Virus record (IMG/VR): IMGVR_UViG_3300037424_002166
Location: 1 to 24,842 of that record
Direction: 5' to 3' (one strand)
Source of the DNA: a virus
Lineage: Duplodnaviria > Caudoviricetes
DNA: 24,842 nucleotides
The notes under the pieces are model-generated. The model made no database searches. It saw only the letters and a program-made list of their open reading frames with translations, and was not told the origin of the DNA. The stretch's first letter is position 1. Each line of letters opens with the position of its first letter. Both the position numbers and the translations under genes were made by a program. Shown piece after piece: positions 4,679-24,842 of this stretch.

Positions 4679-6486
4679 TATTTCTTGGCCTTCCTTTTCG
4701 GCTTGACGTACTCAACGTCGAGCGCTTGCGGCGGTGCTGGCTCGACCTGGTTGGTGACGTTCACGACAGGCGCAGCCTGCTCGGGGAGTTGGTTCTCGAT
4801 GTTGACCGTGGGGGTCTCGACCTGGTTAGTCATGTTGACTTGTGGCGTTTCGACCTGGTTGGTGACATTCACGACAGGCGCAGCCTGCTCGGGGACCTGG
4901 TTCGTGACATGCACGTCCGGTGCTTTGACCTGGACGTTGATGTCTGGCGCGGCTTGCTCCGGGATCTGGTTCGTGACATTCACGACCGGTGCGGCTTGCT
5001 CTGGGATCTGGTTTTTGATGTTGATAACCGGTGCGGCCTGCTCGGGCATGTGGACCTGGATCGCCGGTTGTGTGATGTTGATGACCGGCGCGGCGTTCTG
5101 GCTTTCCTCCGTTGTGGTCTCATCCGGCTCACCTGGATCTGGTTCGCCGGTTGTACCTTCCGGTTCTTTTACTTTGCGCCGGATGCCTTTAGGTTGCTTG
5201 CCGTCCGTGTCGTAGTCTTTGCCCAGCATCTCGTAGAATAGGAGCAGGTAGGTCGGCTCGTCGATCATCTCTCTGTCGAACAGGTCGGCCAGGACCGGCT
5301 CGATCCGCGCGGCGGCCAGGGCCAGCGTGGAGTTGTCCCGTTCGGTCACGTCATCGGCGCGGATGGCGATACCGGCCGCCTGCAAGCGTTTCTTGCTGAA
5401 GTGGTTGCGCTTGACCACGGCGATCGTGCACAGGTAGGCCAGCGCGCGTTTCATGCTGTTTTGGCGCATTTTGAACTTGCGGAATGTGGGCGTTCCTGCC
5501 GCCTCCGCAGTGGTGCGCGTGGAGCTCTCCGGCTCGGCGATGTAGTGCAAGGGTAGCCCGATGCCTGCGGCAATGTGTTTCTTGATTGCGATGATGTCCA
5601 TATTGGCGTCGAAGGATTGCATATTCGGGGAGAGCGTGCCCCATACTTCGCTCTCGTTGTTTACGACGATTGCGCCTGGTTGCGGTGGGTTGGCGTTGAG
5701 TTCGGCTTCGCGCTGCTCGCGTTGTTTCTTTTCCAGTCCCTTGACCTTCACGATGTAAACGATCAGGTTGCGCAGGTGGTTCATAATGACCCGGTCGTTG
5801 AGCAATGTAGATAGCCGTCCCAGCCATTTCAGGACGGGTGTGAGGTCTGCTTCGCCGAAGGTGGAGCCGACCGGCCGGTTGATTGGGAAGTGCAACATGA
5901 ACTGGGTCTGCTCGGGGTCGAGCGGGTCGTAAGCTACGTATGGCGATGCGCTGTTGTCCTGCTGGATGTAGGCTGTTTCCTGGCGGTAGTCGTTATCGAA
6001 GGTCTGTATCTCGCTGATCTGTTCGGATGGCACGGCGCGCGCGAAGGTTGAGCCGTCGTTGGCGTCTACGCTGCATAGTAGGAACAGGTCGCCGGTTCGT
6101 GATTGCTCTGCCACCCATTCCGGGATTTGCTCATCTAGGTTATTGAGTGGGTGCTCCCAGAATTCTTTAACATAAGCCGCGGTAGGCTTGTGCAGGATAG
6201 CCGGGGCCATGCCGTCGCCAACCACGAATTCGACTATGGCATCAGTGATCCGGCGCGCGATGGGGTTGGTGCGCCAGGCGAGCAAGGTCTCGCTGATAAT
6301 GGTGGCACGGTCCCAATTGTTGCGGTCGCGGAAGATGTCCCGCCCGGTGCGTGTGCCGATGATGATGGTATCGTCAGTTTCAGCCATGCTCGAGAGCCGT
6401 GCCTTTACGCGCTCTTCGACGGCCTGGTCGATGGCTGCGCGGAAGGGGTTGCGGACTCGGATTTCTCGCCCGAAGATTTTTGCCAT
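4678..6486 (-). CDS. Portal protein with repetitive C-terminal extension
   Basis: Directly after terL; NPIARRITD..VEFVVGDG, GDLFL, FGEADL, IAAGIGLPLHYI portal-like motifs. Confidence 0.85.
   Translation of the reverse strand: MAKIFGREIRVRNPFRAAIDQAVEERVKARLSSMAETDDTIIIGTRTGRDIFRDRNNWDRATIISETLLAWRTNPIARRITDAIVEFVVGDGMAPAILHKPTAAYVKEFWEHPLNNLDEQIPEWVAEQSRTGDLFLLCSVDANDGSTFARAVPSEQISEIQTFDNDYRQETAYIQQDNSASPYVAYDPLDPEQTQFMLHFPINRPVGSTFGEADLTPVLKWLGRLSTLLNDRVIMNHLRNLIVYIVKVKGLEKKQREQREAELNANPPQPGAIVVNNESEVWGTLSPNMQSFDANMDIIAIKKHIAAGIGLPLHYIAEPESSTRTTAEAAGTPTFRKFKMRQNSMKRALAYLCTIAVVKRNHFSKKRLQAAGIAIRADDVTERDNSTLALAAARIEPVLADLFDREMIDEPTYLLLFYEMLGKDYDTDGKQPKGIRRKVKEPEGTTGEPDPGEPDETTTEESQNAAPVINITQPAIQVHMPEQAAPVINIKNQIPEQAAPVVNVTNQIPEQAAPDINVQVKAPDVHVTNQVPEQAAPVVNVTNQVETPQVNMTNQVETPTVNIENQLPEQAAPVVNVTNQVEPAPPQALDVEYVKPKRKAKK
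4740..5100 (-). repeat. Coding tandem repeat PEQAAP-V-V-N-V-T-N-Q in portal tail
   Basis: Five PEQAAP copies plus shorter ETPxVN variants. Confidence 0.9.
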
Positions 6487-7983: not shown

Positions 7984-8351
7984 CTGATCCCGTCTTCGTC
8001 GTTGAGTTCGGCTAGCGCGTCCATGATAGCGGTCTCGACCGGCAGGTACTTGCCGATGATGAGCTGGTGCGAGCGAGCGAGAGTGGATATGGTCAGCATC
8101 ACATTAGCCAGGGTGTTGACTGTCTTGAGCGCGTTTTCACTGAGTTGGGTTGTAGTCTCATCGGCTTCGATGGGCTTGAGCCCATTCTCTCCCAGCCGTT
8201 GCATGATCCGGTCGGCCACGATCCGTAAAGCGTTGATCTCGCTTTCGAGGTCGTCGTCGCCTTTTGCCAGGCGGTTCCGCTCTTTGAGTGTGAAGCGTTT
8301 GGAGTAGAAGCCGTGTTTGACTGCGTTGGTATTGCCTTTAGGCGCGGGCAT
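7980..8351 (-). CDS. terS: Terminase small subunit
   Basis: N-terminal APKGNTNAVKHGFYS motif, helical body, ATGA overlap with terL. Confidence 0.8.
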   Translation of the reverse strand: MPAPKGNTNAVKHGFYSKRFTLKERNRLAKGDDDLESEINALRIVADRIMQRLGENGLKPIEADETTTQLSENALKTVNTLANVMLTISTLARSHQLIIGKYLPVETAIMDALAELNDEDGIR

Positions 8352-9549: not shown

Positions 9550-9930
9550 GGGGTTCGGGGGGTACTCCCCCCGGAAGCAGAAAGGCCCGCGAGTACGCGG
9601 GCCGATGGAGCCGGCCTGTCCGCCTGAGCAAGAGTGACGGAGCTGGCTGCGCTGTTCCTGGACCGGTCACGGTGTTCCAGATCCGGTCACGCTGTTTCTA
9701 ACGATGGGCGCCGGAATCGTTGATATACTTTGCTCATCCTGGCGTAGCCAGGCGCTGACCGTTGTGTCTTGCCCATCGGTCAGTTTATTTAAATGCGAAC
9801 CGCCCGGGTTCGCCGGGCGGTCCTGTCTCAATGCGGGGAGCTTGACCGTTGACCGGGTCAACTCCCCTAAAATAATGTATCGATCTAAGGGGCGGGTTTC
9901 GGGCTGAGGGGGGCAGCCAGTCCCCCGCCG
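9550..9930 (-). ncRNA. Candidate structured non-coding RNA
   Basis: At least five clear hairpins downstream of a good promoter, no credible ORF. Confidence 0.35.
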
Positions 9931-9936
9931 TGGGGA

Positions 9937-9965
9937 AGTGTAGCACGGGTGTTTGGGTTTGGCAA
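9937..9965 (-). promoter_or_regulatory. Sigma70-type promoter
   Basis: TTGCCA-17-TACACT with extended -10 TG. Confidence 0.6.
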
Positions 9966-10116
9966 TGGCGAGCCGCAAGAAAGGCATGTTGTCCTTACGT
10001 GGATGCCGTCCTGATACTCGCTCTCAAAACAGGTGTGAGCGCAGTTTTCGGGAGATTGGCAGTAGGTTGGGAGAGCTGTGGATATAGCCATAGGCGGCCA
10101 ACTGGTGTTGGGCGGC

Positions 10117-10308
10117 TCATTTGCGTTTCTTGTTCCGATCATATGGAACTCTATTACTCAATGGCTTCTCGCAATGCGGACATGTTCGCCAAACAAAATT
10201 ATTGTTGGTCTTGTGACTGTATTCGTTGAAATCTCGTTTGCAATGTTTGCAGCTATGCTTACCAGCAGACCGCAGCAGTTTGAAGGGTTCACCGTACCAA
10301 TTCATCAT
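10117..10308 (-). CDS. Small zinc-ribbon protein (cassette-like)
   Basis: AGGAGG RBS before ATG 10308; CKHC...CPHC. Confidence 0.7.
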   Translation of the reverse strand: MMNWYGEPFKLLRSAGKHSCKHCKRDFNEYSHKTNNNFVWRTCPHCEKPLSNRVPYDRNKKRK

Positions 10309-10326
10309 GTCCTCCTGGGCAAGTCC

Positions 10327-10476
10327 CCCCAACGGTTTGCGTTACCCGCTTGGGGCAACATCGACATTATCATTTTTCGGCACGCCTGCCCCAAGTCGGG
10401 TGCACCCACGCAAGATGGCGGGCCATCATTTTTCCCGAAAGGACATGTGCCATGTCCTGAGAACGCTGTGTTAGAT
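10327..10476 (-). other. attC-like site interrupted by a 59-bp insert
   Basis: R'' ATCTAAC overlapping stop of upstream gene, imperfect stem with extrahelical bases, R' GTTGGGG. Confidence 0.6.
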
Positions 10477-10692
10477 TTCGTGACGGATAAGCATAAGTAA
10501 TTCTTCTCTGCCAAATCCGCCGCGTTCAGCCAATCTCTCTAGACTCTGGCTTTTGCCATATTGTTTCGAATACCACTCATAAGCGACTTCAGCCAACCAC
10601 CAGGGAATAGTACATTCGGCGTGGCGCTCCATCTCACCGCGTTCATTGCGACGGTAATCGTGCTGGATAGGAAAAGGGCGATTATCATTCAT
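10471..10692 (-). CDS. Hypothetical protein (cassette-like)
   Basis: IPWWLAEVAYEWY...QSLERLAERGGFG; bounded by GTTAGAT and ATCTAAC. Confidence 0.75.
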   Translation of the reverse strand: MNDNRPFPIQHDYRRNERGEMERHAECTIPWWLAEVAYEWYSKQYGKSQSLERLAERGGFGREELLMLIRHEI

Positions 10693-10697
10693 AAGAA

Positions 10698-10755
10698 ATC
10701 TAACTTTTAGAAATCAGCGGCGGGTTCTGTCCGTCCGCTGGATTGGCCGCTGGCC
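10698..10755 (-). other. attC-like site (58 bp), degenerate R''
   Basis: ATCCAGCGGACGG...CCGCCGCTGATT...GTTAGAT; bottom-strand extrahelical G and T. Confidence 0.7.
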
Positions 10756-14239: not shown

Positions 14240-14500
14240 GATCCTTTCTTTATAGAGATAACTCTATTTAGTCTGTAGTAAGTAGGCCCTGTGGATAAGT
14301 GGAACAACTTCCAAAAATCTACCTAAACCTACCTATTCATAGTCTAAAGTTATCCACATCTACCTGGGTACAACTTTGTCAAGTTGTACCCACCCCCTGT
14401 GGATAACTTTCTCATTTCGCATAAACCTGGGTACAACTTTGCCAAAATGGGTACAACTTTCCAACCTGGGTACAACTTTACCGGCGTGATGGAACAACTT
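14240..14500. other. Putative replication origin: 3 DnaA boxes, iterons, AT-rich flank
   Basis: TTATCCACA at 14290, 14350, 14398; GGGTACAACTT at 14366, 14381 (inverted), 14429, 14449, 14468. Confidence 0.75.
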
Positions 14501-16774: not shown

Positions 16775-16986
16775 TGGTAGGGTCTCCTTTTCCCGCCGTG
16801 GCGGGACTTTGAAATAGTGTAGAATTGAGATGCAGTCGCCCGCTGGTCTCCTGTGGTAGGGTCTCTTAGCGGGTGACTGCGCGTTATGTCCCGCTGGTGC
16901 GGGACTTTGGCCGCGTTCCCGGCGCGGCTTTCTGTTATCAGGCTTGGGGGTCGTCCGAGCCTGGGATAACCTATGGAGATAAAAAA

Positions 16987-17811
16987 ATGGAAAAGGATGT
17001 AGGTGAGTTTCTGGCTTCGCACGCTTACAGCGAAGCCACGAAGGACTCTTATCGAAGAGTCTTTGCCCGGTTATTGGCCGGTCGAGACCTGCAAGGTCTG
17101 ACGGCGTCGGGGCTTGTGGAATTGGTTCAATCTCAGGGGTGGGGGAATAGTCAGCAGTGTCTTGCGGTGGCGGCTTGCCGGAAGTTTCTGCGATGGCGCT
17201 ATGGCCAGAGTCATCCGGCTTTATCGGCTAAGATCAAATCCCAGCGACCGAAGCCCCAGCGGGTGCTTACTCCTGAAAAGGCGCTCGACCTTCTAATGTG
17301 GTTTGATGCGTCGAACCCGAAGGGGGCGCGTGATCTGGCTCTTGCGGCTACGCTGTTGGATACAGGCCTGCGTGTGTCTGAGGTCTGCCGGTTACAGTTG
17401 GCCGATACGGATCTCGATCGGCATGTGCTTCAAGTGGTTGTCAAAGGTGGTCAGTGGGGGATTGGGATATTCTCGGACCAGACTACTGAATACATATTGG
17501 CTTGGCTCGCGCTTCGCCGGGCGAAGCCGGGCGAAGGGGCTTTGTTCGTGAGTACGCGCTCTGGCCGTAAGTTGACAAGGGAAGGGTTGCAGAGTATTGT
17601 TAAACAGTGGGGTCGGGCTATAGGTATCAAGCTCTCTCCTCACGATTTCCGACGTTCCTATGCTACTATTGCAACGGTGTTTGGTGCTCCTAGCCGGTTG
17701 ATCCAGCTTGGAGGGCGTTGGTCGTCGATAGGAATGGTTGAGCGTTATACACAGTCAGTTAGCCTGGAAGCTATCCGGCCCTACTTGCCGGTCAAAAACT
17801 TGACTGCATAA
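16987..17811 (+). CDS. int: Tyrosine recombinase / integrase (XerC-like, 274 aa)
   Basis: TGLRVSE, VKGG, PHDFRRSYAT, GRWSS, ERYT catalytic set; GGAG RBS before ATG 16987. Confidence 0.93.
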   Translation: MEKDVGEFLASHAYSEATKDSYRRVFARLLAGRDLQGLTASGLVELVQSQGWGNSQQCLAVAACRKFLRWRYGQSHPALSAKIKSQRPKPQRVLTPEKALDLLMWFDASNPKGARDLALAATLLDTGLRVSEVCRLQLADTDLDRHVLQVVVKGGQWGIGIFSDQTTEYILAWLALRRAKPGEGALFVSTRSGRKLTREGLQSIVKQWGRAIGIKLSPHDFRRSYATIATVFGAPSRLIQLGGRWSSIGMVERYTQSVSLEAIRPYLPVKNLTA

Positions 17812-22952: not shown

Positions 22953-22981
22953 TTGACAAGTAAGATCTGGTCTGTTAAATT
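22953..22981 (+). promoter_or_regulatory. Promoter for leaderless radical SAM mRNA
   Basis: TTGACA-17-TAAATT with extended TG, ATG 7 nt downstream. Confidence 0.75.
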
Positions 22982-22988
22982 TTCAGTT

Positions 22989-23975
22989 ATGAGAGTTTTG
23001 GTTGTTAATTGCTCGCCTGGTTACAATCTTGGTGCGAACAAGATCGCTAATTGGCATAGAGAATCGGGGAATGAAGTGGATTTCTATACAGGTGATCCTG
23101 GGATATTCTCTTATGGCTACGATCTGGTTTGTCTCTCTGTTATATTTTCTTGGCACGCCACAACTGCGCGTGACATTGCTTTGCGTGTAAAGGGGATTAG
23201 TGATGTTTGGTGTGGTGGGCCTGGTATGTTTGCTTTAGCGAACTGGTGGAAGAAAGAGACGGGTTTGGATTGCGTGCTTGGTTTAGATCAACGATTTGAA
23301 CACCAGGGCGGGAATTATAAAATGACTTTTGCTAGTCGGGGTTGTCCTGTGGGTTGCTGGTTTTGTATCGTTCCGAAATTAGAAGGCAAGGAATTTACTT
23401 TAAATTGGGATTTTCAGCCTGCTCCATTTTTGTGCGATAACAATCTGAGCGCTTTACCTGTTAAATTTCAAGAGCACGTCATTAGGCGTTTTCAAGAGAC
23501 TGGTACAAGGTTGCTTGATGCTAACTCTGGATTTGAGCCACGAACATTTGATGAGGGCACATATAGACGGTGGAAACCGATTATGCGCGGTCCCTGGCGT
23601 TTTGCCTTGGACATGATGAATGAGTTAGATGTTGTCTATCGAATGATGGCAATATTAAAAAATGAGCCGCGAAGTAAAAAGCGTGTGTATGTCTTGATTG
23701 GTAATGAGCCGATACAACAATGCTACGAGAGAATTGTTAAGGTGATTGAATGGGGTGGTGAGCCGCATTGTCAGCCTGTGATGTCCTTGCGAGCTTTAGA
23801 CAAAAGACCAATGGTTAAATATGATTGGACTGAGCAAAAACTCTTAGATATGGCGCGTTGGGCGACTCGTTGGCTTTGGCGGAAAGTTCCGTTATCTGAG
23901 TATAGCAATCGAAAGAATGAATTGTCGTTGTTTCGGGGGGATGGGTATTGTTCTTCCCTTCCTGGTGTTTTGTAA
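22989..23975 (+). CDS. Radical SAM protein with short B12-binding-like N-terminal domain
   Basis: SRGCPVGCWFCIVP CxxxCxxC; YNLGANKIANWH..GNEV, SVIFSW, GGPG, DNN, YVLIG. Confidence 0.88.
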   Translation: MRVLVVNCSPGYNLGANKIANWHRESGNEVDFYTGDPGIFSYGYDLVCLSVIFSWHATTARDIALRVKGISDVWCGGPGMFALANWWKKETGLDCVLGLDQRFEHQGGNYKMTFASRGCPVGCWFCIVPKLEGKEFTLNWDFQPAPFLCDNNLSALPVKFQEHVIRRFQETGTRLLDANSGFEPRTFDEGTYRRWKPIMRGPWRFALDMMNELDVVYRMMAILKNEPRSKKRVYVLIGNEPIQQCYERIVKVIEWGGEPHCQPVMSLRALDKRPMVKYDWTEQKLLDMARWATRWLWRKVPLSEYSNRKNELSLFRGDGYCSSLPGVL

Positions 23976-24470
23976 GTAGCTTGGTTGGTGGGATGTAGTG
24001 CCGGTGAGCGGGTGATTGGCCGCTGTCCAGGCTTGGGCTTTTAGTGGTGCTTGTCCACGGTGCGCGAGAGTGGAGGGAGCGTAGGGAAACAAGGCGCGGG
24101 CCTTAGCGCGTGGGTGTTCGCGCGGCCTGCCTGTTCGTTGGGCAGGCAAGGACCTGCGCCGCAGTTGACCGGAGCGGAAGGAACGGAAGCGCAAAAAGCC
24201 GATGCCTGCGGCCTTCGCTTTCCGTGCGCTGGCGGGCCGTAGGCCGCGCACGCGCTTGGCTGTTTTATAGATCTGCGAGCCTTTATGGCGAGCTTTGCTG
24301 TTTAGGGGATCGCCCGCGCTTCACGCGCGGTTTCGCTGAGCGCGCCCTACGCGCGAAGGGACTCGGCGGGCTTTGCCGAAACGAAGTTTGCTTGCGCCGT
24401 TCGCGGTGGGCGTACCGCGGCGCAAGCCAGTCGGATGTGCGGCGCGAGCCGGGATGTTGTGAGCGACGTC

Positions 24471-24842
24471 CGGAGCGAATAGGCGGCGAACGGTCCGTGA
24501 GCCGGTGAGCCGACAGGCGAACTTGAGCGGAGCTCGTCGGAGCGAATAGGCGGCGAACGGTCCGTGAGCCGGTGAGCCGGTAGGCGAACTTGAGCGGAGC
24601 TCGTCGGAGCGAATAGGCGGCGAACGGTCCGTGAGCCGGTGAGCCGACAGGCGAACTTGAGCGGAGCTCGTCGGAGCGAACAGGCGGCGAACGGTCCGTG
24701 AGCCGGTGAGCCGGTAGGCGAACTTGAGCGGAGCTCGTCGGAGCGAATAGGCGGCGAACGGTCCGTGAGCCGGTGAGCCGGTAGGCGAACTTGAGCGGAG
24801 CTCGTCGGAGCGAATAGGCGGCGAACGGTCCGTGAGCCGGTG
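24471..24842 (+). repeat. 67-bp tandem repeat array, at least 5.5 copies, runs off window
   Basis: Units start 24471, 24538, 24605, 24672, 24739, 24806; no spacers. Confidence 0.97.

Follow-up and report, generated by a model that had tools for sequence, protein, structure and literature searches.

An integrase-less, integron-type cassette array in a temperate phage, likely of Anaerolineae, with three attC sites predicted to be inactive, one of them by a 59-nt miniature IS110 element

Phage genomes are known from Qi et al. 2023 (PMC9892861) to contain CALINs, i.e. attC clusters without an integron integrase, and five of the six phage attC sites tested there recombined with IntI1. Published phage attC arrays are mostly predictions or E. 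coli assays. The IS1111-attC group of insertion sequences includes ISKpn4, ISPst6 and ISPa25 (Tetu and Holmes 2008, Post and Hall 2009; both as cited in PMC11187229), and in the same source IS1111 is described with inverted repeats of 11-13 bp and extensions of 7 and 3 nt. The pair MITEPpu9/ISPpu9 of Pseudomonas putida is of IS110 type and targets REP sequences, MITEPpu9 carrying a small RNA gene according to the description in PMC12288879.

The window analysed here, i.e. the whole stretch of 24,842 nucleotides, is an entire linear virus record of 24.8 kb with a completeness rating of 100%. We consider it quite probable that it contains an integrase-less, integron-type cassette array in a temperate phage, likely of Anaerolineae, into which the cassettes were likely inserted by IntI acting in trans, and that the three attC sites, predicted to be inactive, include one interrupted by a 59-nt miniature of an IS110 element. 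The features of the locus are collected in Table 1.

Table 1. Features of the cassette locus and phage genes of the window (positions in the window)
Feature	Position	Strand	Remarks
Upstream phage gene, 127 aa	10707..11090	-	last codons and stop inside attC-1
attC-1, 58 nt, short type	10698..10755	-	R'' GGCCAGC, R' GTTAGAT; extra G and T on bottom strand
Cassette A gene, 73 aa	10471..10692	-	no Pfam, PHROG or NCBIfam family
attC-2, 150 nt with insert, 91 nt without	10327..10476	-	R'' ATCTAAC, R' GTTGGGG
59-nt IS110-type miniature inside attC-2	10406..10464	-	GT at each junction, two hairpins
Cassette B gene, 63 aa	10117..10308	-	two CxxC pairs (zinc-ribbon-like)
attC-3, collapsed	10096..10113	-	R'' GCCCAAC, 4 nt, R' GTTGGCC
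Downstream gene, 68 aa, cysteine-rich	9885..10091	-	begins 4 nt past R' GTTGGCC
Phage tyrosine integrase (not integron integrase)	16873..17811	+	28 bits on TIGR02249
Terminase, portal, excisionase-like gene, DNA methyltransferase			encoded in the window

The record is that of a temperate phage, likely of Anaerolineae. Relatives of the terminase were found in 70 of 401 genomes of the class containing an Anaerolineae bin and in none of the 201 genomes of the phylum of the Roseibium control, and one Anaerolinea contig carries a terminase relative together with a homologue of cassette gene A; on the strength of this distribution and of the shared contig, the host is likely an Anaerolineae bacterium. 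The cassette locus lies near the end of a long minus-strand run of small genes, upstream of the packaging genes, and it is from this operon position only that the cassette genes would be taken for early genes. Elsewhere in the window, a GC-rich non-coding record end (24404-24842) carries a 67-bp tandem repeat in at least five copies, short repeats at 4741-5099 code for a repetitive C-terminal extension of the portal protein, and a 26-nt repeat occurs three times in an AT-rich gap (14357-14484), possibly as origin iterons or operators. An AT-rich B12-binding/radical SAM-like gene on the plus strand (22953-23975) is missing from the alignment with the sister phage described below, and two strong hairpins 3' of the array (9788-9870), without an Rfam match, are kept in it. 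The Rfam search of the window as a whole gave no match either.

Three attC sites in normal orientation were observed around the two small genes, with one gene per cassette and the genes on the top strand. All the motifs named in an earlier sequence-only reading of this DNA were located where it had placed them, on the minus (gene, top) strand: the R' of attC-1 (10704-10698); the R'' at the 3' end of gene A (10476-10470), which overlaps the stop codon and is complementary to that R' at 7/7 positions; the terminal R' of attC-2 (10333-10327); and the R'' 3' of gene B (10113-10107), complementary to the R' of attC-2 at 6/7 positions. The R' of attC-3 (10102-10096), sitting 4 nt past its R'', had not been reported there. 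The cores RYYYAAC and GTTRRRY are present in attC-2, in attC-3 and in the R' of attC-1, whereas the R'' of attC-1 ends in AGC in the window and keeps its AAC in the sister phage. The attC-1 fold with extrahelical T and G was recovered as well, both bases being in the 3' arm of the window's + strand (the bottom strand), which makes the strand of the genes the top strand, as is normal for cassettes. This fold has a predicted energy of -15 kcal/mol (z -3.8; one of 200 shuffles was equally good). A strict arm pattern, consisting of four pairs, an extra base, five pairs, an extra base, three pairs and then a GTTRRRY core, had attC-1 as its single match in the window, and 60 simulated windows gave none. 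Both attC-1 and attC-2 have the two extrahelical bases on the R''-L'' arm, which are absent from the collapsed attC-3. The two genes had also been called AT-richer than their flanks; the GC fractions of 0.47 and 0.43 versus 0.58 for the flanking genes bear this out, but the difference is modest, with 8% and 3% of 200-nt windows, respectively, equally low in GC.

A covariance model was built from 28 attC sites of other records, with the sister phage excluded. Among its eight matches in the window the places of attC-2, attC-1 and attC-3 rank as the top three, with 47.4 bits (E 2e-9) for attC-2, a score favoured by the model seeds having been found with the attC-2 pattern, 12.5 bits (E 0.26) for attC-1 and 9.5 bits (E 1.3) for attC-3. 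By itself attC-2 alone is significant in the window, and attC-1 and attC-3 are not. Above 20 bits the model finds this one window site and both sites of the sister phage (40.1 bits and, for its copy of attC-1, 20.6 bits). The same scan of the window detected no attC 3' of the downstream gene. The family of attC-2 also comprises attC sites of other phage records and of Anaerolineae genomes, and a comparison of attC-1 with plasmids gave chance matches only. Each attC of the window is damaged in a different way, by a base change in the R'' of attC-1, by the collapse of attC-3 and by the 59-nt insert in attC-2, and all three are predicted to be inactive. The decay of the sites that had been proposed thus holds in part: all three window sites are damaged and the two of the sister look intact, but attC-2 is an intact site with an IS110-derived insert.

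A comparison was offered by the sister phage, a single viral record (L049/L050) found with the attC-1 pattern and collinear with the window in blocks of 75-97% identity. The two phages share the upstream gene, attC-1 (with an intact R'' GGCCAAC in the sister) and the downstream gene (82%). In the sister phage, between these shared flanks, one unrelated cassette was observed, with its own 128-nt attC and cores complementary at 7/7 positions. The homology of the two phages stops 2 nt past the GTT of attC-1 and restarts at the last GTT core. A G|TT-bounded difference between related phages had been set beforehand as a check, and it was found here in the form of a replacement bounded by two GTT cores; both G|TT boundaries were seen in this one sister phage, and no empty site was seen. 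Indel boundaries unrelated to the GTT sites, which were to count against the cassette interpretation, do not occur at the replacement, but they do occur at a 302-nt deletion in the window upstream of attC-1 relative to the sister phage. This deletion took out a phage gene, which matches PHROG families of unknown function, and fused the upstream gene to its tail. In both phages the last codons of the upstream gene are encoded by attC-1. For the intact attC-1 of the sister a low R-box pairing (0.0016) was predicted. That two sister phages hold different cassettes at one and the same pair of crossover points is direct genomic evidence of integron recombination editing phage operons.

The searches gave a single sister phage, and it occurs together with the phage of the window in run X1, possibly the sample from which the record derives. 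No empty site was found in the viral contigs, the metagenome contigs or the 401 class genomes, and runs X2-X4 contained short pieces of the phage locus only, with no further allele. The upstream gene had no match in the viral contigs; for the downstream gene the sister phage was the sole match in the viral contigs, and the metagenome contigs gave nothing. A neighbouring gene of the locus had no match in the 401 class genomes, and therefore neither a prophage copy nor an empty site was seen in them.

Complementarity between the cores follows the cassettes rather than the sites. When the four variable core positions were compared in viral arrays of related attC sites, the R' of one site was complementary to the next R'' at 4/4 positions in 22 of 30 close neighbouring pairs, versus 4 of 40 cases within one site and 8.5% of random pairs. 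Moreover, the first R'' of the sister phage (GGCCAAC) is the exact complement of the terminal R' (GTTGGCC) of both phages, each of the two sequences being absent among 40 other sites. The simplest reading of these sequences would be that one ancestral, self-complementary attC lay between two phage genes and that the cassettes were inserted at its G|TT; the match may also be due to chance or to two related cassettes.

The insert in attC-2 is a recurrent element, which the sequence-only reading had not reported. Many unrelated contigs among the public ones aligned to the locus cover positions 10394-10474 and diverge on both sides, and in X1 the summed contig depth over the insert is about 860-900 versus about 45 for the phage, which is a lead only. 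The insert was searched for by 22-nt and 19-nt patterns from its interior, free of attC sequence, and 8 metagenome loci, 13 genome loci and no viral loci were obtained. Nine of the 13 genome loci of the conserved 19-nt pattern belong to Anaerolineae or Chloroflexi, and the other four (L075, L081, L082 and L084) were rejected as insert copies, about four matches being expected by chance. A 17-nt pattern taken from the variable hairpin was likewise rejected, its 13 genome matches proving unrelated on inspection and viral matches numbering zero. Further copies of the insert were obtained from five of the matching genomes. In total, 32 distinct matches to the conserved end were collected, and in 25 of them the attC L'' motif follows directly: 13 are miniatures of 57-59 nt (that of the window included), seven are long forms and five have the right end only. 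No L'' motif follows the remaining seven, of which at least two (L075 and L082) look like chance.

In metagenome contigs and Anaerolineae genomes, attC sites were found to carry twelve further copies of 57-59 nt and two full-length IS110-family elements, always at this same GT. The two long forms that are complete (L072 and L079; 1814 and 1886 nt) encode transposases with the domains PF01548 and PF02371 on the bottom strand, have the same terminal sequences as the miniature and are likewise inserted at the GT that separates the R'' spacer from L''. This GT is present at both junctions in 10 of the 13 miniatures and in both complete elements. The miniature consists of both IS110 ends around a loop of 2-5 nt, and it has no transposase and no long non-coding region; with both ends in common with an autonomous element and many independent sites, it resembles a MITE in these two respects. 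From its sequence the insert is identified as a gene-less miniature of an attC-targeting IS110-family element, not as a result of random decay. The inner hairpin differs between lineages and covaries, 4 of its 8 pairs being changed on both sides, a number that related sequences can inflate, and 92% of the cells of the miniature alignment pair across both hairpins. Without the insert, attC-2 is identical at 71 of 91 positions, gapless, to an intact site in L044, and its predicted R-box pairing rises from 0.007 to 0.18, compared with 0.16-0.94 in six intact members of the family.

The upstream non-coding region of the full elements contains short matches of 4 and 7 nt to the two target strands, overlapping at the core, which in two related copies lie on opposite sides of a predicted loop. 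These matches resemble the seekRNA as described in PMC11187229 but are too short to prove a guide function. The distribution of the miniature is patchy, with 2 of 301 class genomes positive by BLAST. Two long IS110 forms (L080 and L086) keep part of the upstream non-coding region and have lost the transposase, being joined to unrelated sequence. The 59-nt insert displaces R'' and thereby hides attC sites from model-based annotation. Among natural derivatives of IS110 (bridge/seekRNA) elements it would be about the smallest, and it shows which of the IS110 end sequences are kept.

How such an element spreads allows two interpretations. There is about an even chance that the insert does not move by itself and that a one-off internal deletion of an IS110 copy was spread by the copying of attC sites as new cassettes arose. 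A double-stranded circle of 59 bp is probably too small to form, which favours passive copying, as do several identical insert copies in similar attC sites (L068, L069 and L070); on the other hand, the same type of miniature precedes differing variable arms and R'' cores, and several distinct inner hairpins are found with a near-constant length and compensatory changes. It is tempting to speculate, although we regard it as rather unlikely, that the 57-59-nt element is still mobile as a minimal substrate of an RNA-guided IS110 recombinase and acts as a reversible lock of attC sites, and that the array grew inside one self-complementary attC between ordinary phage genes. If so, the full element would supply the enzyme and the guide RNA, and the miniature, moving in and out at the GT core, would freeze or free cassettes in hosts and phages, phage operons being a place where plain genes turn into integron cassettes.

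The two cassette genes differ in their relatives. Gene A, found at 35 viral and 7 genome loci, encodes a widespread phage protein and is an ordinary, non-cassette gene at most of them: an attC adjoins it in 1 of the 35 viral loci (L012, where the attC is of another type, with matching cores) and in none of the 7 genome loci. The assumption that the phage had imported its genes as cassettes is therefore not borne out by gene A. The relative closest to it (77%) belongs to a related phage (L002:4975-5250), where it is not a cassette; this copy, without an attC, lies just upstream of a replication-type gene and between the arms of a perfect 14-bp inverted repeat in which TTGACA occurs. L002 also has a lone attC, at 8145-8235. 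For gene B, a near-orphan, there were eight weak matches, the best of which has 48% identity over 52 aa; a word search found no homologue, and its two weak viral loci are without attC. Recurrence of the same genes in cassette arrays elsewhere, which had been proposed as a check, was seen for gene A in L012 only. Members of the gene A family are plain phage genes in some places and cassettes in others, the latter with two unrelated types of attC, and this is of relevance to the origin of integron cassettes. In another record (L001:3087-3218) a tRNA-like non-coding stretch, which was not called by ARAGORN, makes up part of a cassette flanked by two attC sites.

As had been stated from the sequence, the window encodes no IntI. 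Its tyrosine recombinase was considered and rejected as such, reaching 28 bits on TIGR02249 with a cut-off of 265, and the best scores on this profile in the whole record are 22-28 bits; with no intI in the record, the locus is not a complete integron. IntI is also absent from the sister phage, L002 and L012. The integrase may be that of the host, as had been proposed, or have another source: a full IntI was detected in one of the five Anaerolineae genomes checked, and an IntI-like gene occurs in another phage record as well. The former genome (G002) has two full copies of IntI at contig ends; no attC match was found in the fetched stretches around them, and no IntI-linked host array was seen. 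The latter gene (L045:752-1908; 257 bits, cut-off 265) lies on the cassette strand and starts directly at an attC R'. The phage record containing it encodes a terminase and is one of five viral records with arrays of the attC-2 family, the other four having no IntI-like gene. A DNA methyltransferase cassette is located further along in L045.

The integron-type identity of the cassettes, as put forward in the sequence-only reading, is supported by the cores, the hairpins, the complementarity and the boundaries in the sister phage. That the hairpins are instead terminators or chance palindromes of the phage operon is hardly credible: the weak model scores of attC-1 and attC-3 would agree with it, and terminator-like matches in the region are at chance level, but the failure of the strict arm pattern to appear in any of the 60 simulations, the score of attC-2, the GTT-bounded replacement in the sister and the confinement of the extra bases to one arm all speak against it. 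The array could also have been taken over whole from a host array, through homologous or illegitimate recombination, in which case the phages would differ by later block swaps and not through an integrase. This would be in line with neither phage encoding IntI and with the miniature being seen only in bacterial and metagenome contigs (no exact-pattern matches in viral contigs), from which attC-2 probably passed through a host array; it is nevertheless improbable, because a GTT core marks the boundary on either side of what are unrelated genes in the two phages, because the neighbours on both flanks are part of the phage operon and because the family of cassette A is one of phage genes. It is a serious possibility, if one we would on balance not expect to hold, that cassettes are made and shuffled among phages, ordinary genes becoming cassettes by means of an IntI from a co-infecting phage and not from the host. 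The plain state of gene A in 34 of 35 viral loci and its association in L012 with unrelated attC sites point in this direction, together with the five viral array records, one with the IntI-like gene and a terminase; the lack of IntI in the other four, in the sister phages and in L002 and L012, the two full IntI copies in a host-class genome and the IS110 miniature, which indicates passage through a host, point away from it.

If the cassettes were inserted by IntI in trans, as is preferred here, a single resident attC with the R'' GGCCAAC and the R' GTTGGCC would have been the landing site, and circular cassettes would have been recombined into its G|TT by IntI, attC x attC, with a gain of one cassette in the sister lineage and of two in that of the window. 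The gene-less miniature in attC-2 would have been left by an RNA-guided IS110 lineage whose target is the GT that separates the R'' spacer from the L'' box, an event placed either in the prophage or, prior to capture, in the host, while a point change would have disabled attC-1 and a deletion attC-3. As a result of the base change, the deletion and the miniature, both genes are predicted to be locked in, and the cassette genes would then be read within the phage operon.

In comparison with known systems, the array is a real phage cassette array of an already known kind, predicted to be immobilised, for which the evidence of cassette exchange is unusually direct. Like the phage CALINs as described in PMC9892861, it has at least two attC sites and single-gene, unidirectional cassettes, no intI and a location inside a phage genome. 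It differs from those described there in that its three sites are all damaged and the sister phage shows a replacement at exact cores, and in that attC-2 holds a miniature IS110 and the likely host class is Anaerolineae. In the literature surveyed, which comprised titles and the beginnings of abstracts with incomplete coverage and no supplements, no description of an attC-targeting 59-nt IS110 miniature was found, nor, in titles and abstract beginnings of similarly incomplete coverage, one of Chloroflexi phage arrays or of cassette neoformation; the miniature IS110 parasite of attC sites is apparently previously undescribed. The full elements share with the IS1111-attC group, by its description in PMC11187229, a DEDD transposase of the IS110/IS1111 family, one fixed position near the attC end and one orientation, and the phage copy differs from that group in having no transposase. 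Compared with IS1111, the full elements have inner inverted repeats of 7-8 bp, end extensions of about 35 and 4 nt and a core dinucleotide that is duplicated, and their longer non-coding region precedes the transposase, that of IS1111 being downstream; by these ends they fall outside IS1111 and look IS110-type, also when set against the account in PMC11208160. With MITEPpu9/ISPpu9, as described in PMC12288879, they have in common the core dinucleotide at both ends and a palindrome in the left end box, and the miniature is, like MITEPpu9, a transposase-less derivative, MITEPpu9 being thought there to move in trans. Unlike MITEPpu9 as characterized in that source, the element found here targets attC and consists of two ends around a loop of 2-5 nt, 57-59 nt in total.
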